Below the pieces are notes generated by a model. The model had not been told where the DNA came from. It was given only the letters and a program-made list of their open reading frames with translations, and made no database searches. Shown here piece after piece: positions 15,110 to 63,473 of a stretch of 64,000 nt of DNA. Source of the stretch: Biomphalaria glabrata (Eukaryota); contig NC_074716.1 of assembly GCF_947242115.1 (NCBI RefSeq), forward strand, positions 24,176,637 to 24,240,636, in the 5' to 3' direction. Within the stretch, counting starts at the first letter, position 1. The number at the start of each line of letters is the position of its first letter. The position numbers were made by a program, and so were the translations under genes.

Positions 15110-15265
15110 ATAGTTTACTTCCTAGTCCAAACCTCCCGCAGGACGACGGGGGATGGGAGCGGGCAGGGTTTGAACCCTCGACCGTCGATAAATCCGAACG
15201 ACAGTCCAGCGCGCAAACCGCACGACCAGGCAGCCATCCCGACCAGGCAGCAAAGAGGCATGAAG
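15110..15265. other. GC-rich island with a B-box-like GGGTTTGAACCC (possible tRNA-derived SINE fragment, antisense) about 50 bp upstream of an ASK1 acceptor
   Basis: This about 150-bp segment has about 60% GC, versus about 30% for the flanking intron. It contains GGGATGG...CCATCCC pairing ends but does not fold as a canonical tRNA. Confidence 0.35.
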
Positions 15266-15533: not shown

Positions 15534-15667
15534 TATGTCTATGATCTGGATGATAAAGGTAACCGCATACTTCTGGGTAAAGGTACATATGGTGCAGTTT
15601 ATGCTGCTAGAGATAAAAAAACACAAATAAAAGTGGCAGTTAAAGAAGTGCCTGAGAAGTATCACCA
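15534..15667 (+). CDS. MAP3K5: ASK1 kinase-domain exon (Gly-loop and beta3 Lys)
   Basis: Acceptor tctctcctag|, donor |gtaagt. Encodes [44 protein letters not shown], aligning with human [34 protein letters not shown]. Confidence 0.95.
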
Positions 15668-15912
15668 GTAAGTAGGCTTAGTCATTCTTTAGTATAATTA
15701 ATTCTTTCTGGTAAATAGGTTTACTTTTACCTCATAGGTTTAGTTAAACTAGATTTGGATTTCTTTTTTCAAATGAAGTTTTTTTTTTAAAGTCTTATAA
15801 TAATTTGTCTCAATTTATATTTTTACTTTTCTAAGTAAGGTAATATATATTTATATAAATATTGGTGAACACATGGAACTTTGTATAATTCATCAACCAA
15901 TTTGTGTTCCAG

Positions 15913-16040
15913 AGAGGTGCAGCCATTACATGAAGAAATAAAACTACATATGAGACTTAGCCATAAAAATATTGTCAGATATCTAGGCTCAGTGAGTGAA
16001 GAGGGCTATTTTAAAATCTTCATGGAACAAGTTCCTGGAG
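15913..16040 (+). CDS. MAP3K5: ASK1 kinase-domain exon
   Basis: Acceptor tgttccag|, donor |gtgaga. Encodes [43 protein letters not shown], nearly identical to human [41 protein letters not shown]. Confidence 0.95.
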
Positions 16041-16514
16041 GTGAGAATTTTAATTTCATTCTTACCATTCACATGAGCTCATTTGTGAGAGTGATTAGAT
16101 TCTGTTTATATCTTTTTTTTTCATAAATAAGCCTATTCATTTAAAAAAAACAAGGATTCACCCAAGCCTCTCATTGATCCTTACACTGAGAATCCACAGC
16201 CTAGCTCTTTGAAAATTGTATATTCATTTGTTGTCATTCTTCTGTTTCGTTCAGAGAATATGATAACTAAAACAATGTTCAAGTCACAGTGAGAGACAAC
16301 TTCTTGTTTATCAACATGGTTAACCAAAAACCTTTCTTTCATTACCTCACATTCCTGACTGCACAAGTATTGAGTACATGACACAATGCAAGTGTACAGA
16401 CCTAACAGTATCATTTGTATCTACAATCTTTCTTCATCATAACCTCTATACTTTTAGAGAAGATCTGTTCATTGCAAACTCATTTTAATTCATTACATTA
16501 TTTTTGGCGTACAG

Positions 16515-16618
16515 GAAGTCTTTCCCAGTTATTGAGGTCTAAGTGGGGTCCCCTGAAAGAAAATGAGCCTACCATTGCATTTTATACCAAACAAATATTG
16601 GAAGGATTAAAATACTTG
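16515..16618 (+). CDS. MAP3K5: ASK1 kinase-domain exon
   Basis: Acceptor ggcgtacag|, donor |gtaagc. Encodes [34 protein letters not shown], aligning with human [34 protein letters not shown]. Confidence 0.95.
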
Positions 16619-16755
16619 GTAAGCTTTCTTGTGGGCTTGATAAGAACAAATATACCACTTTGCTTTGCATAGATATGATATCAATTAATATCTATATTTA
16701 CTTATTTGGAACTAAAATATCCTTAAGTAATAAAAACTAAATGCTTATCTACCAG

Positions 16756-16894
16756 CATGATAACAAGATAGTCCACAGAGATATCAAAGGTGACAATGTT
16801 CTTGTAAACACTTACAGTGGAGTTTTAAAAATCTCTGACTTTGGAACTTCTAAAAGGCTGTCAGGGATCAATCCCTGTGCTGATACTTTTGCTG
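16756..16894 (+). CDS. MAP3K5: ASK1 kinase-domain exon (catalytic loop [11 protein letters not shown])
   Basis: Acceptor tctaccag|, donor |gtaagt. Encodes [46 protein letters not shown](G). Confidence 0.95.
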
Positions 16895-17394
16895 GTAAGT
16901 CAATTAGTTTTAATCACTGTTACTATTATTTGTTGCATAGTCTGTTATAAATTGTTATGCATCAGTTTGAGACATTTTCATTAATATGTTCTTTTTTTTT
17001 TTTGGTTTCTTTATCCTGCCTTTGTTCCTTTTTTAGTACTGTTCTTTATGTGTGAGTCTTTGCAAGACAACAATCTGGAGATTTGGACATACCTCCTGAT
17101 TTTGTTAAAAAATATAGTACAGGTCTTGATGAGGCCCAATTTGAATTGTATGATCCTGCCCTTAACACTCTTACATCCTTGTTGGTATTGTTTGCTCCAA
17201 CACTTCTATTCAGTTTTCATTTCTTGTCAGACTATACCATAATAGTCATGAGTGTGATGTTTATTTAAAGAGTTAAATTTACCCAAATATTTCTTTCTAA
17301 GTGTAAGATATAGATTTTGTTGTTGAAGCACTGGTAAAGTAACACTAATAATAGTTGATTACTTAAACACACCTTCACACACAAAATCTATATC

Positions 17395-17426
17395 TTTGAA
17401 AAAAAAAAAAAAAAAAAAAAAAAAAA
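17395..17426. repeat. poly(A) tract (about 30 nt)
   Basis: Homopolymer within an intron; possibly the tail of an older retroposed insertion. Confidence 0.8.
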
Positions 17427-17791
17427 ACAGATACTCACTAAAACAAAATTTAATGGGAATTTTTTTTTTAATAGAAAGGAAATTTCAAAACATACAGAAT
17501 AAAGCACCAGTTACATAAAATGAGTACACACACACACACATACAAATTCAAGAAAGAACTACAACCTAATGAAACTAATTGTTCTGCATAAAACAGTACT
17601 ATGAATTAAAACATTACATGCCAATCTTTAAGTTTTAAAGAAACAAAAAAATCATTGCCTAATGGTGACACTTCAACAACCTGGCATCACAATGTCCTAC
17701 TTTCAGATTTGCAGTCATGTAAAAAATGTGGCCATGATCATAGCTTTATTTATTATGGCTTTTATAAATATAATTTTGTTTTGTTCTAAAG

Positions 17792-17853
17792 GTACAATTC
17801 AGTACATGGCACCTGAAGTCATTGATAAAGGTATCAGAGGATATGGCCCACCT
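17792..17853 (+). CDS. MAP3K5: ASK1 kinase-domain exon (APE motif)
   Basis: Acceptor ttctaaag|, donor |gtaagt. Encodes (G)TIQYMAPEVIDKGIRGYGPP. Confidence 0.9.
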
Positions 17854-17990
17854 GTAAGTAAATAGAGTCAGCATTATGATATCATTTTATCATTTAGATA
17901 GTTCACATTTCTTTAATTTCTGTTGGATTCTTTATGTGTATTGCAAAATTTTTATTTGAAAATCTTATATATTCAAAATTTTGTTCCCAG

Positions 17991-18056
17991 GCTGATATTT
18001 GGTCTCTAGGCTGTACAGTTATAGAAATGGCTACTGGTAAACCACCTTTTATTGAG
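17991..18056 (+). CDS. MAP3K5: ASK1 kinase-domain exon
   Basis: Acceptor ttgttcccag|, donor |gtaact. Encodes [22 protein letters not shown]. Confidence 0.9.
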
Positions 18057-18405
18057 GTAACTATGAACACTTTTTTTAATTAGCAGTTTTGACAAATTTC
18101 CAGTTTCATGAGCATTTATTTTTACCTTATCTAATTGTACAATGGTGAGTCAGAAAGTAATCTTTTCAGCCCTTGCACCCAATTGAACATTTGGAAACTT
18201 ACACATGTTATCTATCCCATTTTTCTGTACACAAAATCTTAACATCAGAATGATCTTGATATTGACAATTTTAAGTTAAAGAAAATGCATTGCTACCCCT
18301 CACTTAACAGTAACAATCTTGATTTAATGGATGTAATGTTTTAGTCTTTAAAGCAGATGTAAATAGGGTAAGGACTAATCATTGAAAGTGTTTGTTGTGT
18401 TGTAG

Positions 18406-19810: not shown

Positions 19811-20199
19811 GTAATTGTTAGTATTCGGCTCTAGAAAAGTTAATGTAGCTGTGTTTTTGGTTTAAATTATGAATGTGATTAACAGGAATGTTGTACAACT
19901 TCATCACAAGGTAGGTTGTTGTTAGGCTATGCTGAGAAAGCTGTTAACAAACATTATAATCTATATTATTATAAGGACAAAATACCACTTGCTGATTTAT
20001 TGATTTTATGTACCTATGTAGCAAGAGATCTGATCAACTGCTATATGGATTCGCATGAAATTTCCTTTTATCCCTTAGTTGCTTGCCTGAACACAGCAAT
20101 TCGAGAAAAAAATGCAAGCATTCTATTCAATCTTTGTATTTTATTTTAGCTATTTCCCCATAAGGCAGTGTCATGTTTAGGAATTATTTGTGTTGTTAA

Positions 20200-21110
20200 C
20201 TAGCTGTACACAATTAAGGTCCCTTGGTTCACCCTGACATAGTCCACCAGATTCTGACCGACTGGCGTCACAAAGCTGCCAACCTCGGTAATAGTAAAGT
20301 TAGATCTCAGATAATCGCCAATTTGACAATGACACTGAATACTGTAATATATATTTCTGAGACCGCAAGCGACGCCCACACTAGCATAGACTTGAGCTCA
20401 GTATATACTACTCCAACACTGTCACCCCTAAACACTGGTCCAAAAATCCTACTGAGTAATAAGTCCAAGAAAACTAGTACAGACTATAGATATAATAACC
20501 TTTTATGGACCAAAACACCGTCCATTTCAACCAAACTCAGAGGGTGAACTGCCTCATGACAAAGAGTGACCAATACATGTCACCGGACTTAGTGACGTAG
20601 CAAAACAATTCAAAACACAAATACAGGGCACTCTCGCCCCAAACAAGTACTACGAGTAGAGGAAATAAAAAACAGAGTTAGGATAACTACGCGACAGGCA
20701 GCAGTCTACATATAAAGCTTAAGTGCAAATGTTTTAATTTCACAAAACAGACTTCCATATTTAAAAAAAAATTTGAAGCATATTTTCTTTCTTTTTCCCT
20801 AATATCCAAAATAGCTACATAAATGCATGTTTAAAAAGTTTCTTAAAACGAAATTGCAATCGTCGACGCTTTAAACAGTTAACTAACAAAAACAAGTTAA
20901 TATTTTAATTTCTTTTAATCGAAAACACCAAACATCTTTTTGGGCCTATTAAAAGTGGTATCTATGTTAGAGAGGGACCGTTAAAATGCCGGCAATGGAA
21001 GTGCACAATGTACAAAACTAAAGGATAGGAGGTTCCTGACAAAATAAATCAAATAGAGCCTGGGAACAAATCCACAGGCCTAGCCTGGGTATAATGCTAG
21101 TCATCTATAC
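20200..21110. other. Compositionally distinct (C/A-rich, CpG-containing) about 0.9-kb block inside an ASK1 intron; unclassified insertion
   Basis: It departs from the flanking AT-rich intron and contains GTGACGTAG and gtcgacgc. Its 107-aa ORF (20224-20547) has no recognisable domain. Confidence 0.3.
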
Positions 21111-24749: not shown

Positions 24750-25815
24750 ACATTCCTCGCTTTAAAATAAATAAATCTCTTACTTGAGCCTAATTTTTCT
24801 AGGCTACATACTATGGGCTAATGAATTTTTGACCCAGAGAGCTCAGAGGGTTAGGGTAAACAATGTTATATCTAATGAACGCATAGTTAACACAGGGGCG
24901 CCCCAGGGGGCTGTGACATCGCCATTGTGGTTCATTTTGTACACCAATGATTTTCGATCCGATAGTTCTTGTTGCTCCTTCACAAAATTCGCTGATGATG
25001 CGGCTCTTCTTGCCCTGCTCTCAGAGAGCTCAGACGTAAATGAGTATTTCAAAGAATTAGAACACATTGAAGAATACTGTAAAGATAATTTTTTATTATT
25101 AAATGTAAAAAAAACCAAAGAAATGATAATCGATTTTCGCAGGGACAAGAAGGAAAATGATATTGTTTCTGTAGCTGGAGAGACTATTGAAATTGTGCAA
25201 ACCTTTAAATACCTTGGTACTATCCTAGACAATAAACTAAATTTTACTGCAGATACTGATTATATCAGCAAAAAAAGGGCAGCAAAGATTACGACTACTA
25301 AGAAAACTGTCCTCGTTTAATGTTAGCGAAAAGGGCTTGGCTATGTTTTATCACGCTCACATCTGCAATATTTTCAGTTTCAATATCACTGCCTGGTATG
25401 GCAATCTGAGCATTAAAAATAGGAATAAACTTAATAGAATCCTCAATGCTGCTGGCAAAATCATTGGCAAAAAACAAACCCCATTTGGGCAGTTGTTTGA
25501 GACAAACATCTATAAAAAAGCTAACAAGATCCTCGAAATAAAGAATCACCCTTTGTCTCAGGATTTTGTGATTTTACCATCACAAAAGAGATACAAGACA
25601 CCGATAGCAAAGACAAACAGACACAAACACTCTTTTGTTCCCCTGGCAATCAAATCATTAAATAAGAACAATCTGGTATAAACTTTGTCACATGTAAATT
25701 ATGAGTGAGTCTGGTGTGAATGTACACTTTGGTTTCTTATAGTTATAATGTTTTTTGTTTGGTGTAATGCACAAATTGTAAGACAAATTTCCTTACGGAT
25801 AATAAAGATTATTAA

Positions 25816-25855
<40 letters not shown>

Positions 25856-32637: not shown

Positions 32638-33130
32638 CTTCACCATTCCCTCTGGTCTCTTCCCTCAGCTCCCAACCCACCACCATTCCCTCTGGTCTCT
32701 TCCCTCAGCTCCCAACCCACCACCATTCCCTCTGGTCTCTTCCCTCAGCTCCCAACCCACCACCATTCCCTCTGGTCTCTTCCCTCAGCTCCCAACCCAC
32801 CACCATTCCCTCTGGTCTCTTCCCTCAGCTCCCAACCCACCACCATTCCCTCTGGTCTCTTCCCTCAGCTCCCAACCCACCACCATTCCCTCTGGTCTCT
32901 TCCCTCAGCTCCCAACCCACCACCATTCCCTCTGGTCTCTTCCCTCAGCTCCCAACCCACCACCATTCCCTCTGGTCTCTTCCCTCAGCTCCCAACCCAC
33001 CACCATTCCCTCTGGTCTCTTCCCTCAGCTCCCAACCCACCACCATTCCCTCTGGTCTCTTCCCTCAGCTCCCAACCCACCACCATTCCCTCTGGTCTCT
33101 TCCCTCAGCTCCCAACCCATCACCATTCAC
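32638..33130. repeat. 40-bp minisatellite x about 12 (caccattccctctggtctcttccctcagctcccaacccac)
   Basis: Near-perfect tandem copies. It generates the stop-free 220-aa and 173-aa ORF artefacts with 40-aa protein periodicity (3 DNA units). Confidence 0.95.
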
Positions 33131-34308
33131 TCTGTCTCGGCATGATGTTTGTTTTTAATCAAAGTTATGAATGTCTACAAATTGATACATGAACCTACAT
33201 TTTGTATGCCCATTCTTAGCAACTTGTAAACTTCATTTCATTCTAAACTGGGCTGACAGACAGCATGCATTTGTTTTGATTTTAGTTTTGAATCAATTTA
33301 TTATCAATTAAAAATACTTAAAAATCTGCTATGTTGGAAAGCTGTTTCAAAATTCTCTTATCAGTTGACTATTTCTTTGAAATAATAACCTTATGTGCTG
33401 ATATTCCCTTGCTGAAAAGGATGTTATATCAATTTTTTTGAAAGCGAATGTTCACTCAATAAAGCTTTGCTTTAGATTCTCAGATTTACTGATTGTGATT
33501 TCTTTTAAAATTTGCATAAAAATACATTGTCAAATAATTTCTACTTGTTACACTTTGTTTTGTTAAATCACTATAAAGTACAGCCATTCCACATCATCTG
33601 TTGATAAAAACACTTTTAACAAAATCGTTTTTTTTTTTTTACATTTTACATTCTGATTAAAAATGAAATCTATGGCCATATAAGTTGACTTTCCCGATAA
33701 GCCTGATCATGAACTGTGTATTGCATATACAAACGTATCCATTATTACTATGTCCACTAATCACATGTTCTGGTGTAGGGGATGATTAAACATCTCTTGA
33801 TTTGTAATCTATTTTACTCTTCTCAATTGATATAAACTTTTTCAAGGTCATTTAAATGCTTACATCTTTAAATAAAAAAAAAGACAAAGATGATGACATT
33901 ATTTTTTGTTTCACTCATAAATTTCAGATTTTATTTGACCTCACCCCAACAGCAAACTCAGAGTTTCAGGTACCATCAATGTAGACCAGATTTTTATCTC
34001 CCTTTAATTTCCTTTTTTCTCACATTGATGGGCCATCTTTGACCTTTGACACCTACTATTAATATATATAATATATCTATATAACTGTTTGGCTTGGACA
34101 CTAAAGCTGCATAGAATTTTACTGTTTGCATAAAATGTGTGTGTTTTTAAAAAAAAAAATTTTAATTAAATGCCAGCCTAGGCATGACTGTAACTATTTC
34201 CAATCTATAATTTAAAGCCTGCCAACTCTTCTCTTAGAAAAGCTTTGTTTTTCATGACTAACTGTAAACTCTCATTATTGTAAAAAATAGCCCACTGAGA
34301 TGTATAAA

Positions 34309-40188: not shown

Positions 40189-40289
40189 ATGCCATTGATG
40201 AAGAAGATCATCCTGATCTAACCAAGTGTGATCAAGATTTAGTTGCTTGGTTACAACAGTTAAGAATTGATGCTGACTCTATCCAGGCT
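40189..40289 (+). CDS. MAP3K5: ASK1 exon (start of C-terminal SAM-like domain)
   Basis: Acceptor tatggttag|, donor |gtaagg. Encodes (D)AIDEEDHPDLTKCDQDLVAWLQQLRIDADSIQA, aligning with human EDSELTDWLRVNGADEDTISRF. Confidence 0.85.
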
Positions 40290-40419: not shown

Positions 40420-40735
40420 TTGAGCTGAAAGGAGGAAATTCATGGCTGATTGGTCAATGGCTTGGTTTCCAAACATAGGGGTCCTGGGTTTGAATCTTGG
40501 TGAAGACAGAGATTTTGAATTATGGGATTTTTATAGTACCCTGAGTCCACCCAACTGTAATGGGTACCTGACTTTGGTTAGGGAAAGAAAAGGTGTTTGG
40601 TCATTGTGCTGGCCACATGACACCAGTTGGCCAAAGAAAATTCTGCCTGATAGATCACAAGGTCTGAAAGGGAAACTTTACTTAAAGGAGGAAAACAGAT
40701 GTGTTTCTAGGCAGCACATCTAGCAGCAGTTTTTG
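40420..40735 (+). mobile_element. tRNA-derived SINE copy 1 (intron of ASK1)
   Basis: tRNA-like head with a B-box-like GGGTTTGAATCTTGGTGAAGAC and a body with GGTACCTG..TGGCCACATGACACC. The 93-aa ORF across it is spurious. Confidence 0.6.
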
Positions 40736-40800
40736 TTTAATACTTGACTTAAAATCTTTGGATAAGATCCATAAAACTGGTCTGATAACTTTTGCTCTAG

Positions 40801-40877
40801 GTTTGTGATGAAGAGTATACTCTGGATGATATCCTTGAACTTGTTACTTGGCATGACCTTCAGCAACTGAACATTAA
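40801..40877 (+). CDS. MAP3K5: ASK1 exon
   Basis: Acceptor tgctctag|, donor |gtaagtc. Encodes VCDEEYTLDDILELVTWHDLQQLNI, aligning with human LAEDYTLLDVLYYVTRDDLKCLRL. Confidence 0.85.
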
Positions 40878-41499
40878 GTAAGTCAACATGATAGCAAAAT
40901 TTCATTTCATTTAACATGAACTTCTTTATTAGCGGCCCCTTAAAGGGGAAGGCGCTATTAGTTTTGTGTGAAATGTCTGTCCATCCTGTTTAGATCTCAG
41001 AAACTAATAGAGAAAATGAAAATCGGACATCATGATATTTTAGATCATTCAAAGTTCTGATGCAATGGCTACTTTTTTTTTTCCAAAAGTGAACCATCTA
41101 ATTTTTAAAATTATATATGCAAGCAGATTTTTCAAAAAATTACACCACTTTTCAATGAAAAACTTCAGGGGAAGTAAGTCTTATTAAAAAGTTCACAAGC
41201 TTCTTCATTAATAAATCAAGCTTCATAGATTCGCGCATTGGTACAAAACATTTGCATCTAAGGTCACAATGGTAAAAGTGTCAATTTTCCATTTATTAAC
41301 TAACTCATTGAATACAATACTGATTCAAATGTTATTTTTAAAAAAAGAATTTTGATACGAACTTCGTTTTAGTTATAAGTTTAAAAAATAACTAACTACT
41401 TTTCAGCGTGCAGTTTTGACATATCGTCGTGATAGGGACCTACATTGACAGTCTAAGTAAGACTAAATAGAGCCCAGATCAACATATATTTATAATAAG

Positions 41500-41730
41500 A
41501 GTTCTAGTCTAGATATAGTAGATTCTATATCAAGATTCTAGATCTAGATATAGACTTATATCTAACTCTAGATCTAGACTTAGAGACTTGGATCTATTTC
41601 TAGATCTAGACTTAGAAACTTAGATCTATTTCTAGATCTAGACTTAGATCTTGAATCTAGATTTAGATATAAAACTAGGTCTAGATCTAAAACTAGGTCT
41701 AGATCTAGCTAGATCTATGTCTAGATTGTA
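41500..41730. repeat. TCTAGA-rich palindromic block with about 38-bp internal tandem units (tctagatctagacttagaaacttagatctatt)
   Basis: Visible repeats of ctagatctagacttaga. Confidence 0.8.
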
Positions 41731-41984
41731 TGACAAAAGACAATGGAGATATTAATTTTTATTTGAGAGGGGAATGTCTTGTCATCTGTACACAATTGTA
41801 CCTTAAAGTGGGTCAAGAATTTTTTTTTTTTCCTGTTGCCACTTTATCTAATTTTGTTAGAAGAATAAATCTTTTTTAGTTTCTCTTTATTACAATGTAA
41901 CATGTTATTAATTTTGAATGTATGGATAAGGTTAATAATTATTATTTAAAAAAATATAAGTGTACGCTAATTGAATATATGGAG

Positions 41985-42110
41985 ATGCTGTGGCTGAGGG
42001 GTAAAGCACTTGGAACTGAAAGTTCCGTGTTCGAATCCTGGTGAAGACTCTAGGTGGACCACTTTAAGGGGCCGATTTTGAGTTTGTGTTTCACACAAAC
42101 TGTCTTTGTA
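41985..42110 (+). mobile_element. tRNA-derived SINE copy 2 head (last ASK1 intron)
   Basis: A-box-like TGGCTGAGGGGTAAAGCAC and B-box GTTCGAATCCTGGTGAAGAC, related to copy 1. Its body TTTAAGGGGCC..GTTTGTGT resembles the fragment at 40921-40975. Confidence 0.6.
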
Positions 42111-42335
42111 ACCTTGTTTCTTTTGTTTCAGTTTAGCTTCTCTACTCTTTGTTTCAGTTTAGCTACTCTACTCTTTGTTTCAGTTTAGCTACTACTCTAC
42201 TCTTTGTTTCAGTTTAGCTACTCTACTGTTTGTTTCAGTTTAGCTACTCTACTCTTTCTTTCAGTTTAGCTACTCTACTCTTTCTTTCAGTTTAGCTATT
42301 CCTTGATTCAGTTTAGCTAGCTTGTTTCAGTTTTA
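42110..42335 (+). repeat. About 27-bp tandem array (about 8 units) tttcagtttagctactctactctttg forming the SINE tail
   Basis: Directly visible head-to-tail repeats. Every unit carries a TTTCAG acceptor-like hexamer. The array ends about 60 bp upstream of the final ASK1 acceptor (42396). Confidence 0.85.
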
Positions 42336-42396
42336 TAGTATAACATTTTTTGTAATAGGCTTGTGTGAATTAAAACCTTTTATGTTTTCTTTCTAG

Positions 42397-42466
42397 AGGT
42401 GGCATTCGGTGTCGTATATGGCGAGCCATTCTAGAGCACAGAACAAAGCCTCGGGAAAATGGATAA
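42397..42466 (+). CDS. MAP3K5: ASK1 terminal coding exon with TAA stop (42464-42466)
   Basis: Acceptor ttctttctag|. Encodes (K)GGIRCRIWRAILEHRTKPRENG*, aligning with human RGGMLCTLWKAIIDFRNK. Confidence 0.85.
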
Positions 42467-46745: not shown

Positions 46746-49136
46746 AATACTACATATAATTTAGAATTCAGTCCAAACAATAGGTATACAATTGTACCAC
46801 ATTACACAATGTTCAGGTGAATTCACCTTTTTTTCCTTCAGAGTTATTATTTTTCTGAGCTTTTCTATTGACTGGCTAGCTTTTTTTATAATCTCTAGCT
46901 ACTATCTCATGTGTTATTTATTTTTAACACAGACATAATCATCATTAAAATGAGACAAAATGCTTTGTACAGATGCTTTTCCTTTTTTTGGGGCCCCAAA
47001 TAGGCTTTTGCGATCATTGTAAGTTAAGTGGGTTTGATGGTTCTAGAATTAACTTCAAGTTATGTGAACTGGTTGAGTTTCCTTTCATTGAGTTGCCTCC
47101 CATTAAACAATACTTTCGTCAGCTGCACACTATGTATGACAAAGCAGTTTGTATCAACTCTTGAGTAATCTTTGACATGCAAGCTTCAATGTGCCCTATG
47201 AACCTATTATTAGTAACAAGAATAATTATAATACTCTTTATTGTCCTTTAGTAAATTTGCCTTGCACAATGATCAACTGATTCTACTTTGCCCAATGACT
47301 GCCAAGTACTAATTACAAGTTGGTATACTAAAAACTTACTCCAGGATTCTTTCTCAAGACCATCAGTTTGACTGTCAAGTACTTCACCATTTGATCACAA
47401 GATAGTATTTATAAAACTAGTTTGATAGATTGGATCATAACTTGCATCCTTATTTAAAAAACATTTTAAATTAACAGACTTTAAAATCGCTTAAGGCTAC
47501 AAAAAAAAGAACAAAGGCAACAACTATTGAAGGTGTACATTTTAATTATTATAATGGTATATATAAAGAGTGGCATATCATCCTCGATGATTGCATATAT
47601 CTCAACACAAAAAGCTCATAAAATCTATACATCTGCCATTAACACCAAGTGGCTCTCTACAGATGTTGTTGCTTCTAAAAAGTTAAGTAGGTAGAAATTT
47701 GACAGTGGAACACCAATTACATATCTAGAGCAAAGTGTATTAGATTTACTTATACTGGTTTCATCTATGTCTAGATCTTTTGTTTTTCTGATGTAACCTG
47801 CAGTTTTCATAAATGTAATCAAGTTGTCAAGCAAATCTAGGCCTAGATCTATAAAAAAGTAAAAAGTTAAATTCCCCTTTCAGACCATGTGGTCTAAAGT
47901 GCTAACTTATTCAAAAATAAAATGCTCATGCTATCTGAGATGCATGCCATTGGAAAACATAGGTAGTGGTGGAGCTCTTACAGCCATTGTCTCTTTTGGA
48001 ATAACAACTTTTCAGAACCAATCTGAATCCAGGCCCCCATATATGGCTTAGAGAGCAAAACTGTTAACAATGACAGAAGGAACAATGGTGAGTATCTTCA
48101 GGAAGGTTCTCATTTATATAGGTTGGCTACCAACCTACAAGAAAAACTGAATAGAAACATCCTCTGCCTAGTGGCTAAACCCAAATAAGGGAAAGGCTTT
48201 GGGAGTCAATCCTGAGAAAAAAATCAGGAGCCTATGATCCTGAGGCAGCTACTAGCAAAGTACACTATGGCAGACTCTGTGAAAATACTGATCTCAAACT
48301 GTATTGGCTAACTGCCATTCGTTTGGACCCAATAGTTGCATGGAAAGGGAGGAAGTGGGTGAAAAAGTGACTACAATAGCCAATGCCTCATTTTGTCTAA
48401 AGCCCAAACTTTATTTTTTGCTCCATAAGATAAACCACAATTGTCTGACCACTAAAGGTAGCCATAGAGATAACTAGATTTAACTAACTAAACACCTGGG
48501 TTTAAACAACATGCATAAATGGTAGGGAATTTTCAAACAGTTTTTCTGCAGTCTTTTGTGTCTTTTATGACTTAGGTCATGATTTTAATTTTAATAACTA
48601 GGATGAGTGAAAATTTTAGGAATTAAAACTGCATGTAGCAAAAAAGTTTATTGTAAGAGACACTATTGACATAATAATAAAAGATCATTTGACTAACTTG
48701 CTAACCATGAAAAGAAAAGTTGAAAGAGACACTACTGTCAAGTCAATAACAGCATCTAAAGTACACTATAAAATATTCTAAATTACTTTAAAAAAAAACT
48801 ACAACCCAGCCAATCATTATTAAGGGATTAAACCAACATGATGATGCAGTAATGCAAACTAAATCATTTTACTATTAGCAGGGGTTGTTTTGAACATGGT
48901 TATGATATGGGGATCCTAAGCAGAACTTAATTAATAGAATTAAAGAAATAAATTATTAACATTTAACAACAAATGTTCTAGTGTATCAATAAAAAAAGCA
49001 TCAAAATAGTTGCGCCTTAAAATTTCATTTTCTCCATAAAATTTTAAAAGACATACGAAAGCTAATTTAGAATGAATTATATAATTTTACACACATATCA
49101 AGACAAACTGAAGAACTCTACCTGCCGGTAGTAACC

Positions 49137-50269: not shown

Positions 50270-50383
50270 TCACTCTGTGCCCATTGATAATAAAGAGTTA
50301 ATGGTGGCATCTTTATTTCCCCTGTTGGCTTCCATCACAGACTTGATAACTTCATCTTCCATGTTGGGGAACATGTCTTTCAC
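50270..50383 (-). CDS. TOLLIP: TOLLIP terminal exon (CUE domain) with TGA stop
   Basis: Acceptor tcaccag|. Encodes [37 protein letters not shown], aligning with human [38 protein letters not shown]. Confidence 0.9.
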
Positions 50384-50536
50384 CTGGTGAATACATTAGT
50401 TCATCTAACAATTGTTGTTTACAATTTTAATAAGTTTCAAAGTAAGAATGAATAAAGAAAACTAATTTAAAATCACCAATTATACGCTTAAATGGATGTA
50501 TCTGATAAAAAGCTATGTGTCTGTTATTATAAAAAC

Positions 50537-50664
50537 CTGTTTAAAATCTTCTTCTGTATACAAAGGGCCAAGAGGTTGAGGTGGATAAGCTGGCATCTGT
50601 CCTGGCATGGGTGCCATACCAGGCATGGGTGCCATACCAGGCACAGGAGCCATACCAGGCATAA
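50537..50664 (-). CDS. TOLLIP: TOLLIP exon 6 (linker with a 3x PGMAP(V/M)P coding tandem repeat)
   Basis: Acceptor ttttag|, donor |gttttt. Encodes (V)MPGMAPVPGMAPMPGMAPMPGQMPAYPPQPLGPLYTEEDFKQ, aligning with human CSEEDLKAIQ. Confidence 0.8.
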
Positions 50665-51187
50665 CTAAAACAGAAATAAAATCATACACAATCAACACTA
50701 GGAAAACATTAGCTCATAACAGAAGAAAACAAAAACATGTTATTTGCAAGGCCTACCCAGGAAATTTAGTCTTTCAAAAGTATTTATTTTTGTTTTAAAC
50801 TAGGCATATTGTTCTGTTGTTTCATGCATTTTCTTTTGTATTATAATAATTTAAAAACTTTTTGAAGAGTTACTTATTCCTATTAGACACAACTTTTAAA
50901 TAAATTGGGAATTTCAGCTAGTGGGTTAAAAAGTTAATTTTGCTGAAATGTTCCAATGACCAAATTTGTGAGGTAGCGTATGGATAATATATCGAGAGCC
51001 ATCTGTCTTTAAAATACCTCCCAAAAAGGTCCAGGTGGCCATTTTTGTTTTCTAGCTGCAATTCATAATAACAAAAATGTGTAGATTTTGAAAATATGAA
51101 CTCTTAAAAAAAATTATTTACTCCAACAAAAACGTAGTAGGACTACAACTGTCTTTAGCAATGAAAATGAAATAATTCAGTTGATAC

Positions 51188-51278
51188 CTGGTGCTGGTGT
51201 TGGGTAATAGACAGGCATCATCATAGGCACTGGAGTGGTGTAGGAATAACTAATGATATTGCTCTCAATTGGAGCCTG
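51188..51278 (-). CDS. TOLLIP: TOLLIP exon 5 (linker)
   Basis: Acceptor actttcag|, donor |gtatca. Encodes QAPIESNIISYSYTTPVPMMMPVYYPTPAP(G); Pro/Met-rich like the human linker. Confidence 0.7.
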
Positions 51279-51508
51279 CTGAAAGTGCAATAAAACATTT
51301 AAATAAAAACAAAATACAGTTGTAGAGAATCTGTATGCATTAATGTTGTACTAAATATAATTTCATCATTTTTAAATTTATTAAATTAAATTAATATCAA
51401 ATTCATAATAATACCTTTGAAATCTGTATTTTTTTTTAAAACTACAAATGTAAAGTAAAAGAATATATTCTTGACAAAGGCTGAAGTCTGTAGTAACATC
51501 AAACTCAC

Positions 51509-51661
51509 AGACAAGGACAAAACTAAGTTGATAGAGCCTTCTTTATCATCACCCAGTCGACCACTGAGATGGAACCATTCATCGACAGTCTCACCATTCA
51601 TGACGGCTTCTGGAAACCTGATGTGTGCCCAGGCTATACGATCATCCATTGTAAATGACCT
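51509..51661 (-). CDS. TOLLIP: TOLLIP exon 4 (C2 domain)
   Basis: Acceptor ttaaccag|, donor |gtgagt. Encodes [51 protein letters not shown], aligning with human [51 protein letters not shown]. Confidence 0.9.
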
Positions 51662-51835
51662 CTGGTTAAAAGTAAAAATGTTTTAAAAAAATATTTTTTA
51701 GGTAGATAACAACAACATTAACAGATTTTATGTAAAAGATAAGAATTTTTCATTTGTAATGGTGCTGTTTTGTTCTTATATGATACTAAAGATAGAATGT
51801 TATACAATATATATATAATTAAATATTAAACTGAC

Positions 51836-51884
51836 CTCATCAAATACTTCAATATACATCGAGTCAACACCTAAAGGAAGATAC
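51836..51884 (-). CDS. TOLLIP: TOLLIP exon 3 (C2 domain)
   Basis: Acceptor tcctcctag|, donor |gtcagt. Encodes (A)YLPLGVDSMYIEVFDE, aligning with human VPPGVDSFYLEIFDE. Phase links it to exon 2. Confidence 0.8.
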
Positions 51885-52279
51885 CTAGGAGGAAAAAAAA
51901 AAGGATTTCCATTTTTTAAAAGAAAAAAAGTTGTTAAGGGTGTACTACTTACGTTTGTAAAAATGACTGATAGGCAATAAAAAGTAAAACAAGGTCTCTT
52001 ATTTGGAAACGAAAGATAATGATGATTTTTTTTAAACACAAGCTTTGAACTAAATTACTGAATCTACTGTTTCCAAATAGATAGTGTAGTTGTAATAAAG
52101 AAAATTAAAAAAACTAAAATTGTTTCATTTCAACTCTTGCAAAAAAAATAAATAAATAAATAAAATGTCCATTTCCTGAACTCTATACCCTTTCATGAAT
52201 TCAAAGACAAATATCATAATTAAAAACAATATTTCTAACTACTACAAATTGAATGAAATTAATAACAAAGTCAACCTAC

Positions 52280-52413
52280 GCTGTTACTGTTTTGTTCCAT
52301 CTTGGATTTTTAGCTCCATTGTAAGCTGTTGGGGTCTCAAACACTGTGTGCCCAATACGAACTCTGCAATATGGGTCCATTTTGGTGATCCCATAATTTT
52401 TATTCAGCTTTGC
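52280..52413 (-). CDS. TOLLIP: TOLLIP exon 2 (C2 domain)
   Basis: Acceptor ttttctag|, donor |gtaggt. Encodes [44 protein letters not shown], aligning with human [41 protein letters not shown]. Confidence 0.85.
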
Positions 52414-52779
52414 CTAGAAAAAAAAATAAATAGAATTCTAAAAATGAATGAGCAAAACTTTTGACCAAGCACAAAGTAGTTCTTTAAGGATTTTCTAGCT
52501 TTAGTCCAGAGTATGAATCTTAAAAAAAAAAGAAAAAAAAAACAAAGCGTGTGATCTGTTATGCTGTCAATCAGAACCACTACACTTGCTACTAGCCAGC
52601 TAAAAGTGGAGTGTGTGTCTAGTGCCTGGTGAAACTTTTAGAAGTACTGCCACTGATGAGTGGATAAAAGGAAGTGAATGGAAGAAGAATGGGGAGAGAG
52701 GAACTTAAAGGATTATTGTATGATGAAAGCTGTACACTTCTAGTGAGAGATAGTTTCAAAATCTATCTACACTTAGTAC

Positions 52780-52941
52780 CTGTACAACAGAAATGCTCAA
52801 CCGACCAGCAAAGTTAGATGAGGACATGACATGACCAGCTTGTTGTTGTGCCTGTAATGCCCTGGCAATTCTTTCATCCTCCTGTTCTTGGGTCAGGGCA
52901 GGTCCAGTGCGGAGAAAATCAGATGGTAGTTCACCAACCAT
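52780..52941 (-). CDS. TOLLIP: TOLLIP coding exon 1 (ATG at 52941)
   Basis: Encodes MVGELPSDFLRTGPALTQEQEDERIARALQAQQQAGHVMSSSNFAGRLSISVVQ, aligning with human [20 protein letters not shown]...VGRLNITVVQ. Donor |gtacta on the minus strand. Confidence 0.85.
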
Positions 52942-54609
52942 AACCTAATTTAAATTTGGAAAGCATTTTACAAAATTGTAAGTTAGTTGAACTAACAAAG
53001 CCCATACATGCCAATATAAAACTTTCACACTTTAAGGTTATTTCAAGGTTATTTTCTTCCATACTGCATCTAACCAAAGAGACTTAATTGTAATTATCTT
53101 CTCCTTTAAGTAACATATTTTATAATTTATAAAATAAGATTTTAAGAAACCAAACAATTTGCATTATATTAAATCATCAGTACAACAAAAAGTATTATAA
53201 TTAACGATATGATACTAATTGTCATAGATCTTAACTCCAATATTTGCAGATACACGGTAATGCTAAAACTTGATAACCAAATATATATATATATATTAGG
53301 GGTGCGTCCGGAGCCAGATATGACAGGATAGTAAAATTTGATATTCGGCCGGAGCCGGATACCTAAGTGTCTTGTTAATAGCTTGTGTTGCTGAACATTT
53401 TACGAATCTGTTAAATATCATACATATATTTGTTGGTTTTATTATTTTTTTGCTTTTATATACCTTATTGTTTTAAATATATTAGTTGGTTTTATTTTTT
53501 TTTCCTTTTATATACCTTATTGTTTTAAACTCTGTTACTAATTGATTTATTCAAGCTTTACAGTATTTCTAAAAATCTGTATTGCATGAGTGTTTCTTTT
53601 GTGTATGTACGATGCCACCAAATGTAAAGGCTGTATGTGGGAGGGTCAATGTAAAATATGTTAGTATACATTTAACTAGTTACTAATGTAAATCTCTCAT
53701 AAGTGAAGTGCAATCTGCCTTTAATAGTGGTCGGATGTATGTGTTCATTTCAGACCAACAGCCTGGTCAGATATACCTAGTGAGCCTACACATGTAGTCC
53801 TAGTGTAGTGTGTATAGCTGTTTGTGTTAACCATCAAGCATTGTTTTTTCCTTGAGCATATACATGCAATAGAGTTGGGTGTCAGTCAAAAAAGATAACA
53901 TATTGGCATGGTCAGTCAAGCATATAAATAAATTATACCCGTCCATGAGTTAGAGGTCAAGGGTTGTTGTTTTTTACGCTCCAGCATATTGTTTCTTTGT
54001 TTGCTAGATCTAACTGCGGTACTATTATTCAATTTATTTTATGCAATTTTAAAATTTACTGTAAGGTTTTCTGTTATTTATTAAGTCAAAAGAATTAAAC
54101 AATGAAATTAGCCTTCTTTCTATAAAGTTTTTAATACAAGGCAAAAAATACACACACGCAAACATGCACATCTTTGTTTTATTTTATTGTGCAAAGAACA
54201 TACGTTAGAAATATTAAATGCAAAGAACGTATGTTAGAAACATCTTCCTTAATTATTACTTATTAATTATTTTATTCATGGTTTCAGTAACTGTTACAAA
54301 AGGGAACAATAGTAAGCCTATGGATGTCAGGTGTGTAAATGTCATCCTAGCCTGATACACAGTGGCTATGTACGCATCTTAAGTAAAAAAAAATAGAAAT
54401 AACAAGGAGTTAATTGACTTTCACATATTATTAAGAATATTGTTATCAAATCAAGACACTTAACTGCAGGAGTAATATTCAAGTTAACACGTTAGAAAAA
54501 TTATTTAACCGTAATATTTATTGACTGTGTAATATCCTATGTTGGCACGTTGTGTTTTTTAAAATTCTGGCTTCAAATGGTCAATGTCTATCAATAGAAT
54601 GGGTATCAA

Positions 54610-54975
54610 GGACCAAAGAAATAAAATAAAGAGTAGGGGGTGTTAAGCTCTCCATTTAAAGATAGCCCTGATCGTGTCTTCTACAAAATAATTAGTTACT
54701 GGCTTACTGGGCTACATAATCTCGTGGTTTGTGTTCTGTGTAGCTAAAGGTCATTCGTTTAGGTGTGTGTGATCTTTAGTCCAGCTTACACACACCAAAG
54801 AAAAAAAATAAAGAGTAGGTGGTGTTAAGCTCTCCATTCAAAGATAGCCCTGGTCGTGTCGTCTACAAAATAATTAGTTACTGGCTTACTGGGCTATATA
54901 ATCTCGCGGTTTGTGTTCTGTGTAGCTAAAGGTCACTCGTTTAGGTGTGTGTGATCTTTAGTCCAGCTTACTAAT
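54610..54975. repeat. About 185-bp tandem duplication (x2) inside the DNA transposon
   Basis: aaagaaa..aaagagtagg(g/t)ggtgttaagctctccatt(t/c)aaagatagccctg...tgtgatctttagtccagcttac is repeated head-to-tail at about 90% identity. Confidence 0.8.
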
Positions 54976-55089: not shown

Positions 55090-55700
55090 GTCCAGCCCCC
55101 CCTCCCCCCAATTAAGATTAACTACTAAGTAAACAAACCTAGTTCCCTCGTGTGACCTCTAAAGAGTGCTTACGTCCATCGTATCTGACTTGGGGTCACC
55201 TGTCAATCAATGAACTCAATGTGATGGACTAAACAAATAAAAGGGGGAGGGAGTTGTTCATCTGGAAATATACCTAGTTTCCTTAGGTGGCTCTTGTAGT
55301 CCAGCCCCCCAATTAAGATTACTAAATAAACAAACCTAGTTCCCTCGTGTGACCTCTAGAGAGTGCTTATGTCCATTGTATCTGACTTGGAGTCACCTGT
55401 CAATCAATGAACTCAATGTGATGGACTAAACAAAGAAAAGGGGGAGGGAATTGTTAATCTGGAAATATACCTAGTCCTAGTTACCTTAGAGGTGTGGCTC
55501 TTGTAGTCCAGCCCCCCTAATAAAGATTAACTACTAAGTAAACAAACTCAGTTCCCTTGAAAGGTGTGACCTCTAGTGAGTGTCAATACGCTGACATTAA
55601 ACCTACGTCCATCGTATTTAACTTGTGGGCACCTGCCTATAAAAAAAACTCAATGTGATGGACTAAACAAATAAAAGGGGGTGGGAGTTGTTCATCTCTA
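55090..55700. repeat. About 208-bp tandem repeat (x3) inside the DNA transposon
   Basis: Units begin cagcccccc..aattaagatta(a)ctac..aaacaaacctagttccctcgtgtgacctcta.agagtgctta.gtccat.gtatctgacttgg.gtcacctgtcaatcaatgaactcaatgtgatggactaaacaaa.aaaagggggagggag. Confidence 0.8.
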
Positions 55701-57995: not shown

Positions 57996-58099
57996 ATCTC
58001 ACAGAATTTTCAAAAATTCTTTTTGCAGTGTCTTAGTTTGACAAGACAATAATATATTCAGGACATGACAAGGAGCACATTGGTGGTGTAGGAATCATC

Positions 58100-60814
58100 A
58101 TGTCTAAAATAGCAGCTTCAGCGCTAATTGCTTGGAAGCCGATCAGTGACCGCATCATTACAGCTCGACTCCAAACAAAGGAAATTAAAGTCACTACCAT
58201 CCAAGCTTATGCCCCTACAGAGGATGCAGAAGATACCATCAAAGATCAGTTCTATAATCAACTACAAACCACTCTTGATGAAACACCTACTCACGACCTA
58301 ATTCTACTGATGGGAGATTTTAACGCCAAAATCAATCCCAACCGAACTGGCTTTGAATATGTAATGGGACCATATGGCTCTGCAGAAAACATCAGTGATA
58401 ATGGCGAGCGTTTGATTTCTCTCTGCACATCCAACAGCCTTTCAATTGGAAACACATATTTTAAGCACAAACAAATACACAAAAAAACATGGCGATCACC
58501 AAATGGGGAAACCTTCAACGAGATAGATTACATTTGCATCTCCAAACGATGGAGGTCATCTCTGTTAGACGTGCGGACCCGCAGAGGAGCTGATATCGGC
58601 TCAGACCACTACCTTGTCAGTGGCAAATGTAAGCTCCGATTGAAACGCCAACCAAAACGAGCCACACGACCCCGCCCATTTAATGTAGAGAAGCTTAAAG
58701 ACGGCAATACTGCAGCACAGTTCCAATTGAAACTAACGAACCGCTTTGAGGCTCTTGCAGATATATTGACCCTTGAAGAAGAGTGGGCCAACTTCAAAGA
58801 TACCACTATTGGGTGCGCAGAAGAAGTTATCGGAAGGAGGCGAGGTTCATACAAGAAACGGTGGATACAAGACAGAACATGGAAATTGATAGATGAGAGG
58901 AAAGAGGCCAAACGTAGACGAGATCAGAAAAATGAAACACAGGATCGCAGCCTAGCGGAAGAAGCCTATAGGGAAGCAGATCTGAAAGTAAAGAGAAGCT
59001 GTCGGCAAGATAAACGGGACTGGATTGAGCAGAAGGGACAAGAGGCACAAGCAGCTGCAAGCAGAAATGACACAAAAACCCTCCATCGTATTGTCCGAGA
59101 TCTCACTGGAGCAAAGAGTGGACATGGGGCACCAATAAAAGACAAGCAAGGCAAAACTTTGTTAACGAAAGAAGAACAGGATGCAAGATGGGTAGAGCAC
59201 TTTAAAGAGACCCTTAACCAACTGTCGCCAGACATAACTTACATATTCAAGGACCCCTCTCCAGACAATGATCTCAAGGTCAAGACAGACCCAATAACTG
59301 CTGAGGAGGTTACCATGGCCATTGCAGTGCTAAAGAATAACAAAGCACCAGGACTAGACATGATATCAGCAGAAATGCTAAAATATGGGGGACAGTGCAT
59401 TGTTAACAGAATGACTGATCTCTTAAATCTCTGTTGGCGAACTTCAAAAGTCCCAGAGGACTGGCAAAAGGGAGTGATTGTAAAGCTTCCAAAAAAGGGC
59501 AACTTGGCAGACTGTAACAACTGGAGGGGCATTACTCTCCTCTCTGTCCCAGGCAAAGTTTTCAGCACTGTTTTGTTGAGACGGCTTCAACAGTCTGTAG
59601 ATGAAAGGCTCTGAGAAGAACAAGCAGGTTTCCGAAGAGGCAGATCATGTACAGAGCAGATTTTCGTTTTACGAAATATCATAGAACAAAGTTTTGAGTA
59701 CCAACAACGGCTAACGATCAGTTTCGTGGACTTCAAAAAAGCGTTTGATAGTGTCCACCGAGAATCACTATGGAAAATAGTTAGAGAATACGGTATACCA
59801 GAAAAATTCGTCCAGATCCTACGACACCTTTACAGTCAGTCTAGTTGCTGCATTAAAACAGAAGAGGGAACAACAGAGTTTTTTACAATCGAGACAGGTG
59901 TGAGACAGGGGTGCATCTTATCTCCCTTCCTTTTCCTCCTAGCCATCGACTACATAATGAGGAGAGCAATGAACCAGACTGCCTTTGGTATTCCATGGCA
60001 TGAACAACTCCGATTGACGGACTTGGACTTTGCTGATGATGTTGCACTACTCGGGGCTACAAATAAATGCATTCAAGAAATGACGGAGAGCCTAGACAGA
60101 GAGGCACCCAAAATTGGCCTCCGCATAAACTTGGATAAGACTAAAATTATGCGAGTGGGATATAAGGCAAAGGGTGTCCCCGTCAGACTTGGCGAGTCAA
60201 AGCTTGAAGAGCTGGACAAGTTCACGTACCTTGGCAGCATCATAACAAATGATGGAGATGCTTACCATGATGTAGCGTGCCGAATAGGAAAGGCAGGGAG
60301 CATTTTCCAAAGGCTGCAGCCTATTTGGACTAGCCAAGCCATTGGACTCGAGACAAAAATACACCTTCTCAACACAATCGTCATTCCAACTGCTACATAT
60401 GCATGTGAGACGTGGAAGTCATCTGTCAAAATTGAGAAAAGACTAAATGTGGCTCAACAGAGATGGCTGAGACGGATTTTGGGAGTCAGTTACACAGACC
60501 GGATCTCAAACAAGGAAATCCTTTGCCGAACTGGGAGTCGAACACTTAGTGAGGTTGTGACTGAGCGTCGCATGAGGTTTGCGGGACATGTTCTACGTCA
60601 AAATGAATTACGCACACCAAGAGTTGCGATAACATGGAAGCTAAAACGAGGAAAGCGCAAACAGGGACGTCCTCGTATTACCTGGCGACATACCTTCATG
60701 GAGGACCTCAGAACAGTGGACACCAGATGGGAAGAGGCTTCAGACATTGCCAGTGACAGATCATTATGGAGACAGCTTGCCGCCCAATGCGCCGAACGGC
60801 GCGGGAGGACCTAA
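58100..60814 (+). pseudogene. RTE-like pol ORF (about 905 aa) interrupted by one in-frame TGA at 59612-59614
   Basis: ORFs 58100-59614 and 59726-60814 are in the same frame (both frame 2). The only interruption is a TGA between the endonuclease/linker and the RT domain. Confidence 0.7.
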
Positions 60815-61905: not shown

Positions 61906-63096
61906 ATAGTTTAGATACGCAGATACCTTTGCCGACCACCGTGTTGTTTGTTAACAATATTTATCTCCCTTACCTATATTGAACTTTCAATAACTTTTTT
62001 TAAAGAGAGTTTTTGTTCTTATGCTGTCAACTTATGATTTTTTAAGTGTATTTACTGAAATGAAGGTCTAAATAAAATGTTATTAATAAATTGATGAACT
62101 TGTTGTTTCTTCTTTTTTTTTTCTACTTATGAAATTATTAATTAAAAAATATGTGTTAACAATTAGATCTATAATTAATATATTAACTCACCAAGCAAAG
62201 CGAAATAATGATAAAATAAAAAAAACAAATATGCATGAATTAAATGAAATGAAACACGCATCTATATATACATGTTATGTTTAATTTTTATTTTTTTTGA
62301 ACAAAATTATGCATTATGACTTAGTGATCTTTTTAGAGCAATGACAATAAATGATGTAGATCTAGTACGGGAAACTTATTACTATAAGAAATAATACTTT
62401 TATGTTTATCTGTTGATGATTAAGACTACAGTTAGATCTATACATTTCTAACGAATTTTGAGCGCTCTCTATTTTCGTAAAATCACACCACGAAGAGAAA
62501 GAATTTTATGAAGCTGACACAGATCAGTGTCCCTTTCTCTTTCGCCGTAAGGTCTTCTGAGTGGAGTCTACTGTCTACCAGAGATTTTTTGGCGTGTGTT
62601 TTATGATCAGATAGGACTAATGTCTGTGTTTATAACTCTTACCACTACATCTGGCTCCACTTCTCTTGGAGGGAGGATAGGTCGAGTGTAACTAGATCAC
62701 GAACGTCTTTGTTAAACGTTACGTAGCACCTGTTAAACTATCATGTTTCACAATCTGAAATTTACTTTGCGTAGAGTGGGGAACAAAAGCCAATGTATAA
62801 AGAAACAGGTAAGAAGCATATACACTACTATTTAGATAATTTATGCATCTTTACTTTCGGAGTTCATTAAAAAAAAACAACTCCTCACCTATTACACTAA
62901 ATTTGTTTAAGATGTGTAGTTGTGTGTGTGTGGGGGGGGGGTAGCGACTCCACCTACCAACCCTTCTCTTCACATGGATCCACTAGCGCCCATGTATTAC
63001 ATTCCGTTACGGATTCCAAATCAAGTTTTTCTCTCCCGCCGTACCGTACAGGTGGCGATTGTCTCCATTTATTCTTACGTACCTTTAAACCCTAGC

Positions 63097-63258
63097 TGCG
63101 CCGGCCGTCACACGCGATCTTTGTCTTTACGGCAGAACTAGGTGTGATGTAATCACCTTCCCCTGTTCGGAGCTTCGCTGCGCCGGCCGACACACGCGAT
63201 CTTTGTCTTTACGGCAGAACTAGGTGTGATGTAATCACCTTCCCCTGCTCGGAGCTTC
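63097..63258. repeat. 81-bp GC/CpG-rich tandem duplication (x2)
   Basis: gctgcgccggccg(t/a)cacacgcgatctttgtctttacggcagaactaggtgtgatgtaatcaccttcccctg(t/c)tcggagcttc is repeated head-to-tail. Confidence 0.9.
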
Positions 63259-63473
63259 GCCGGCGCCGTGGTCATATTAGGTCATCTACTGCTAGGATCG
63301 CTGGTATGCTCATAAAGGGAGAAGGGCAAGGTACGGTGTTTTACTTGGTCAAAATTTATCCTTCTTCGCTTTCTTTGTCGGTTCGTTTCACCGACATGCA
63401 GTTCAACTGAGGTCTAGTCGGATGAGACTAAGACTGAAACGTGATGCAACATAAACCATGTCACGATCAAAAC

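Follow-up and report, generated by a model that had tools for sequence, protein, structure and literature searches.

A likely lineage-specific, probably neutral insertion of a SINE-like head and a pyrimidine-rich minisatellite beside the final splice site of an ASK1 orthologue in Biomphalaria glabrata

The subject of this analysis is the last intron of an ASK1/MAP3K5-like gene in a stretch of 64,000 nt of Biomphalaria glabrata DNA (NCBI RefSeq assembly GCF_947242115.1, contig NC_074716.1, positions 24,176,637 to 24,240,636 of the forward strand), which is here called the window and to whose first nucleotide all coordinates refer. This intron carries an insert in which a tRNA-like head of the kind known from short interspersed elements (SINEs) is followed by a short body and by a minisatellite with nine motifs resembling 3′ splice sites. 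The insert is likely to be a lineage-specific and probably neutral intronic insertion in a heterobranch ASK1 orthologue, composed of a SINE-like head and a minisatellite. Head and minisatellite together are an ordinary intronic repeat, both parts being of known kinds; judged from the sequence a role of the array in splicing is unlikely, and the insert would then be neutral. A SINE-like insertion and a minisatellite would thus have enlarged an intron of 130 nt to 1.5 kb beside a conserved splice site, and the case illustrates the ‘shared head, different tail’ build of molluscan SINEs. As found, the insert matters little; if the acceptors of the array were truly used, the repeat would have made a truncated-SAM isoform of a stress kinase.

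The last ASK1 intron and its minisatellite

The ASK1/MAP3K5-like gene is encoded on the plus strand and extends from the start region of the window, which has a GC content of about 31%, to position 42465. Its kinase exons at 15534-18059 show 76% identity to the kinase domain of human MAP3K5, an ASK_PH domain is present in related proteins, and its C-terminal 81 residues match the SAM domain of ASK3/MAP3K15 (PDB 6v0m, E = 2e-13) in an alignment that covers all three final coding exons, in addition to a weak match to Pfam SAM_2. In an initial annotation of the window the gene had been called ASK1 and its final exon had been delimited; kinase identity, SAM match and splice borders bear out both the assignment and the coordinates. 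The features of the 3′ end of the gene and of the insert in its last intron are as follows.

40189..40289 (+), third-from-last coding exon with the start of the SAM domain (AG at 40187-88, GT at 40290; in-frame join to the next exon; orthologue in Physella)
40801..40877 (+), penultimate coding exon (donor AA/GTAAGT at 40877/40878)
40878..42396 (+), last intron of 1519 nt, defined by its splice borders (the orthologous intron of Physella acuta has 130 nt)
41985..42050 (+), tRNA-like head of element 2 (A box TGGCTGAGGGG at 41991-42001, B box TGTTCGAATCC at 42028-38, then TGGTGAAGAC)
42051..42121 (+), short body of element 2 of about 70 nt (perfect 9-bp hairpin 42081-42089 / 42093-42101; T4 runs)
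42110..42129 (+), AACCTTGTTTCTTTTGTTTC, adjoining the first CAG of the array (16/20 direct repeat of 42374-42393)
42122..42333 (+), pyrimidine-rich minisatellite of 26-nt units, from Tandem Repeats Finder (TRF) and a unit-by-unit reading
42359..42396 (+), authentic final acceptor ttttctttcTAG with its polypyrimidine tract and AG-free zone (AG at 42395-96, followed by exonic AGG)
42397..42465 (+), coding portion of the final exon, (K)GGIRCRIWRAILEHRTKPRENG and stop (final SAM helix; stop codon at 42463-65)

The array was called by TRF at 42122-42319 with a period of 26 nt, 7.7 copies, 90% matches and the consensus TTTGTTTCAGTTTAGCTACTCTACTC, and decayed units extend it past the end of this call to 42333. 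In order, the units measure 26, 26, 29, 26, 26, 26, 21, 18 and 14 nt, which corresponds to six full units followed by three decaying units (21, 18 and 14 nt). With units in the range of about 10-100 bp arranged head to tail at high identity the array is a minisatellite, and seven minisatellites with units of 21-41 nt are present in the window. The 22-nt core of the unit has no second occurrence in the window.

On the plus strand between 42126 and 42330 the motif TTTCAG occurs eight times and ATTCAG once, against a window-wide background for TTTCAG of about 0.56 per kb on both strands. Exons beginning directly after these CAGs would start at 42132, 42158, 42184, 42213, 42239, 42265, 42291, 42312 and 42331, and every full unit also contains TTTAG. 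The end of the array is separated from the G of the authentic acceptor by 63 nt. An array of about eight to nine TTTCAG units near the final acceptor, as had been reported in the initial annotation, is therefore real.

A head module shared with a SINE one intron upstream

Both strands of the window were scanned for an A box (TRGCNNAGTGG, at most one mismatch) that has a B box (GGTTCGANNCC, at most two mismatches) 25-60 nt behind it. Exactly two pairs were returned, at 40443/40487 and at 41991/42028, compared with a mean of 0.16 in shuffled sequence. The second pair belongs to element 2; the first lies in a SINE, designated copy 1, in the penultimate intron.

40428..40438 (+), left target-site duplication (TSD) of copy 1, AAAGGAGGAAA (perfect 11-bp direct repeat with 40684-40694)
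40439..40683 (+), SINE copy 1, a tRNA-derived element of 245 bp within the penultimate intron (boxes A at 40443-53 and B at 40487-97; TSD)
40684..40694 (+), right TSD of copy 1, AAAGGAGGAAA (perfect 11-bp repeat)

By its RNA polymerase III boxes (A box TGGCTGATTGG at 40443, B box GGTTTGAATCT at 40487, spacing 44 nt) and its TSD copy 1 is a bona fide tRNA-derived SINE. Its 3′ part of about 40 nt (…GGTCTGAAAGGGGAACTTTACTT) is common to two further elements on the minus strand, at 9717-9758 and 47864-47896, with the same terminal nucleotide in all; these are probably 5′-truncated copies of a partner long interspersed element (LINE) or other SINE families using the same tail. The LINE at 58037-60811 has no match to the tail of copy 1, and no LINE with that tail was identified. 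The central 58 nt of copy 1 (40560-40617) show 81% identity to Physella acuta L005:7025-7082. When copy 1 was aligned locally to a MIR consensus, a score of 27 was obtained, with 28.6 ± 4.8 for shuffles, and this alignment gave no significant support for placing copy 1 in the CORE / Nin-DC-type superfamily.

Aligned from the A box through GAAGAC, the heads of copy 1 and element 2 are about 68% identical, and they match in 18/20 positions across the B box and the 10 nt behind it. In both, TGGTGAAGAC follows the B box directly, and the 20-mer GTTYGAATCYTGGTGAAGAC is found in the window only at these two heads. The short motif GATTTTGARTT recurs in copy 1 and in element 2, but outside this motif and the head module no similarity between the two was detected, bodies and tails being unrelated. 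The ‘two related SINE copies’ of the initial annotation are thus related by a common head module and not by what follows it.

With ARAGORN and Rfam (gathering thresholds; E ≤ 10) no tRNA-like match was obtained for either head. The only Rfam matches were spurious ones of microRNA or small-RNA type, below the gathering thresholds, to the palindromic TCTAGA array at 41519-41726. Head and body of element 2 are predicted to fold no more stably than shuffled sequence (z = -0.63), with no intact cloverleaf. For this element, which had been termed a second SINE copy, the A and B boxes agree with the designation, whereas a TSD, a tRNA hit and a second copy in the sequences searched were all missing. 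T4 runs were dropped as an argument against its transcription by RNA polymerase III, as the genuine copy 1 also has T4/T5 runs.

Searches in other collections brought no relatives of the insert. The head motif had no match in viral contigs, and four GC-rich matches in metagenome contigs were rejected, since they cover only the B-box stretch of about 20-28 nt and are unrelated to SINEs. The array unit had no match in prokaryote genomes and viral contigs. A 44-aa open reading frame (ORF) spanning the junction of body and array had 0 matches among 1.84 billion proteins, which is uninformative, and a search of paper texts for the sequence strings returned primer matches only.

Within the head of element 2 the anticodon-loop-like stretch 42014-42022, AACTGAAAG, is a perfect complement over 8-9 nt of (C)TTTCAGTT in every array unit, possibly by chance. 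A third tRNA-like, GC-rich and SINE-like element was noticed at about 15090-15262 in antisense orientation (-), in the intron immediately preceding the first kinase exon; it has a B box GGTTCAAACCC at 15176 and an A-like box TGGCTGCCTGG at 15236, and its sequence is unrelated to the other two heads.

Comparison with Physella acuta and other heterobranchs

Downstream of ASK1 and tail-to-tail with it, a Tollip-like gene (C2 and CUE domains) is located at about 50273-52950 on the minus strand, the best relatives of which come from heterobranch gastropods, with 87% each for Candidula and Bradybaena and 85% each for Physella and Elysia. The genome of Physella acuta (GCA_028476545.3, locus L005), where this tail-to-tail synteny of ASK1 and Tollip is kept, was used for comparison. 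The annotated ASK1 product of Physella acuta has 1330 aa with ASK-family Pfam domains, and its last exons are conserved, as are splice phase and acceptor position.

The last ASK1 intron of Physella acuta comprises 130 nt as compared to 1519 nt in B. glabrata, and none of head, body or array is present in it, so that the insert appears to be lineage-specific. The penultimate intron has 292 nt in Physella acuta and 511 nt in B. glabrata, of which 256 nt are accounted for by SINE copy 1 and one copy of its TSD. Neither element 2 nor array sequence was found in 178 kb from four other heterobranchs; at the Tollip loci of Elysia, Candidula and Bradybaena, ASK1 was not reached within 10 kb. The penultimate ASK1 intron of Physella acuta contains a tandem repeat of its own (L005 about 20150-20340, minus strand; about 60 nt x about 3, …tttgctaaataagcactcaaaataatactgtagatt…), which is unrelated to the repeats of the window.

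Acceptor mimicry by the array

Acceptor strength was scored with two position weight matrices (PWMs) for 3′ splice sites, a generic one with frequencies after classic human compilations and a small one trained on 14 acceptors of the window. On the generic PWM the eleven real acceptors of the ASK1-like gene scored 3.7-12.1 bits, with 10.7 bits for the final acceptor, and the nine CAGs of the array scored, in order, 10.1, 7.6, 7.6, 7.6, 6.1, 9.6, 9.6, 4.8 and 5.0 bits. The TTTAGs of the array reached 4.6-6.2 bits and 2.0 bits in the decayed eighth unit. Ranked on this scale among 2319 other AGs of the gene, the array sites occupy the 89th to 99th percentile; 73 other AGs with at least 7.6 bits occur in its 42 kb. 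On the window-trained PWM the interior array sites scored 2-3 bits compared with 8.2 bits for the real final acceptor, within the range of -4.9 to 13.4 bits covered by real acceptors in a leave-one-out evaluation.

Acceptor mimicry is hence real but model-dependent. Each unit does carry a pyrimidine tract and a CAG, as had been described, and its acceptor-like strength is upheld by the generic PWM (4.8-10.1 bits against 3.7-12.1 bits for real sites) and weakened for the interior units by the window-trained PWM (2-3 against 8.2 bits). Scores far below the authentic site, which had been named beforehand as speaking against a use of the array, were therefore not obtained.

In another ASK1 intron a tandem array of 12.5 copies of a 40-nt unit is located at 32641-33138, which is 99% identical between copies, C/T-rich on the sense strand and open in three frames. 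It contains 12 acceptor mimics tctcttccctCAG, each with 9.55 bits on the same generic PWM. Because 12 equally strong mimics are found in another intron, such arrays are not special to the final intron, and in this gene minisatellites that are pyrimidine-rich on the sense strand yield dense acceptor mimics as a generic by-product.

Expected consequences for splicing and protein

Three AGs, ending at 42330, 42338 and 42358, are positioned between array and acceptor, and the AG-free zone of the authentic final acceptor measures 38 nt, the acceptors of the gene having zones of 17-89 nt. Like those of the other acceptors of the gene, the 38-nt AG-free stretch of the final acceptor fits the AG-exclusion-zone model for the choice of 3′ splice sites (Gooding et al. 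2006, PMC1431707), a concept and not a family, and argues for a position of the array outside the functional unit of the 3′ splice site. By this logic the branch point of the final acceptor would be situated downstream of the array, which argues against the array as an extended branch-point or polypyrimidine region; that suggestion of the initial annotation is contradicted by the intervening AGs and the 38-nt zone. Since the acceptor keeps its own compact AG-free unit, splicing from 40877 to 42397 is expected to be constitutive.

If 40877 were joined to any array AG, 4-28 out-of-frame residues followed by a stop would result (e.g. NLATLLFVSV, then stop), and the final SAM helix, as aligned to the ASK3 SAM structure, would be lost. 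No array AG was found to lead into an open, plausibly functional reading frame. The C-terminal isoform variation that had been proposed in the form of a variant SAM tail is thus not borne out, the predicted products being frame-disrupted and devoid of the last SAM helix. The most to be expected of the array AGs would be a low level of cryptic use, giving transcripts for ASK1 without this helix.

Weighing of alternative explanations

In the reading preferred here, a degenerate tRNA-derived SINE-like head with RNA polymerase III boxes, built from the same module as the SINE one intron upstream, would be followed by a body of about 70 nt and then by the pyrimidine-rich minisatellite with its 26-bp units, the growth of which was most likely due to slippage or unequal exchange at the 3′ end of the element or beside it. 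The TTTCAG motifs would have arisen incidentally, through repetition of a T-rich unit in which a YAG happens to be present, and would not be a selected splice signal. Element 2 would then qualify as a SINE, with the array as its tail and both forming one entity. A link between head and array is favoured because the presence of a head within about 75 nt of the array start has a chance expectation of roughly 1-2% (our calculation, with seven minisatellites in 64 kb). Several observations weigh against this reading, as do some of those on splicing given below. Direct repeats are missing on the flanks of 41985..42333 and of 41985..42110, the window contains element 2 only once, and since neither a TSD nor, in the sequences searched, a second copy was found, it is the head that gives element 2 its SINE label. 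Furthermore, the 20 nt at 42110-42129 match in 16/20 positions the stretch 42374-42393, AACCTTTTATGTTTTCTTTC, which adjoins the real TAG, and this repeat flanking the array hints at an array origin apart from the head; the level of 16/20 was reached in 4 of 2000 shuffles and at none of 215 other pyrimidine-tract AG sites of the window (maximum 15), the repeat itself having been noticed post hoc in T-rich low-complexity sequence. The array might accordingly not be the tail of the tRNA-like element. It may be a separate insertion that hit the acceptor's polypyrimidine tract and left a TSD of about 20 nt (42110-29 / 42374-93) or have grown in situ from a duplicated acceptor pyrimidine tract and AG, the head being a fragment of a neighbouring SINE. 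Besides the rarity of the repeat, the position of both its copies next to an AG, the lack of a TSD around head and array, and a unit of 26 nt that far exceeds the usual 2-8-nt terminal repeats of SINEs and LINEs (PMC4758252) speak for such a separate origin. It is, however, rather doubtful, though possible, given the post hoc nature of the repeat, the fact that an insert of a 40-nt unique stretch and an array fits no known element type, and the low chance expectation for the adjacency of head and array.

With regard to splicing, it had been proposed that the array provides alternative or decoy 3′ splice sites, which would generate C-terminal ASK1 isoforms or modulate removal of the last intron. 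Several array sites match real acceptors on the generic PWM, and both PWMs rate the first site, 42132, as very strong, its 14.7 bits on the window-trained PWM being above the score of the real acceptor; moreover, the TTTAG of each unit, which precedes the next CAG by 23 nt, might function as a weak branch site. Mis-spliced products of a last intron probably escape nonsense-mediated decay, and an isoform made in this way could therefore accumulate. These points are opposed by the low scores of interior units on the window-trained PWM, by the disrupted frame and lost SAM helix of every product, by the typical AG-free unit owned by the authentic site, by the equally strong mimic array deep in another intron of the gene, by the absence of the insert from Physella, and by a search of protein records with C-terminal peptides, in which no record, normal or variant, was obtained. 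The proposal, plausible as far as the motifs go but unsupported, is considered unlikely, as is any meaningful use of the array AGs, and a functional role of these AGs is considered very unlikely. It is just as improbable that the nine mimics are used or bound in such a way that they act either as regulated 3′ splice sites giving a stable ASK1 without the last SAM helix or as a sink for U2AF or the branch site that slows last-intron removal. If this were true, ASK1 without the last helix could change SAM-mediated oligomerisation, and the mimics would amount to a regulatory switch on a stress kinase that was born from a repeat and is specific to the lineage. Finally, the CU-rich array could be viewed as a candidate intronic splicing regulator of the last exon, for example as a platform of the PTB/hnRNP type, with its pyrimidine content of 73% and seven UCUU motifs within 275 nt of the acceptor. 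This is hardly credible, as the array is absent from Physella and thus not conserved, and as such motifs are expected in any T/C-rich repeat.

Comparison with known repeat systems

The tRNA-derived SINEs of molluscs, gastropods and bivalves, are modular (‘jigsaw’), combining common heads with different bodies and tails, and have terminal repeats of 2-5 nt such as (CA)n, (CAAA)n and (CACCT)n, as described by Matetovici et al. (2016, PMC4758252); SINEs that carry highly conserved domains have also been described from bivalves (PMC11481361). The elements of the window resemble these in the common head of copy 1 and element 2, to which differing bodies and tails are attached, in the TSD of copy 1, its tail common to other elements and its central stretch conserved in Physella, and in their intronic location, which is usual for molluscan SINEs. 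Element 2 differs from them in that a TSD, an identified LINE-like tail and a second copy in the sequences searched are lacking, and in that its 3′ part is an array of 26-nt units instead of 2-5-nt repeats.

SVA-type elements are composites of a SINE and a variable number tandem repeat. SINE-derived satellites are known from squamates (PMC10702118). As in these SINE-born tandem repeats, a short interspersed element is physically joined in the ASK1 intron to a minisatellite with tens of bp per unit. Unlike them, the array unit has no clear derivation from the body of element 2, and a single locus is involved, at which neither satellite-like amplification nor composite mobilisation is seen.

Exonization from antisense Alu elements, the poly-U tracts of which reportedly serve as cryptic 3′ splice sites derived from transposable elements (work of Lev-Maor, Sorek and Ast), is similar insofar as a repeat provides a pyrimidine tract and YAG near or in an intron and hence a potential competitor of the real acceptor. 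In the ASK1 intron, however, the motif belongs to a sense-strand minisatellite and not to an antisense A-tail, and its use would lengthen the terminal exon and disrupt the frame, and would not create a cassette exon.

Other repeats of the window

Palindromic arrays of the TCTAGA/TAGATC type with a higher-order period of 32 nt occur twice, at 41519-41726 in the last ASK1 intron and at 3356-3616. A non-long-terminal-repeat retrotransposon is encoded on the plus strand at 58037-60811, the LINE mentioned above, with an endonuclease ORF (Exo_endo_phos_2) and a reverse transcriptase ORF (RVT_1, DUF6451), between which there is an in-frame stop. One of the ASK1 introns contains a second reverse transcriptase fragment (24775-25678, plus strand), behind which (ATT)n occurs at 25808-25854. 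Tandem duplications with long units of 182, 197 and 82 nt, in about two copies each, were found at 54612-54971, 55104-55557 and 63095-63268, respectively, in a GC-richer region downstream of Tollip.

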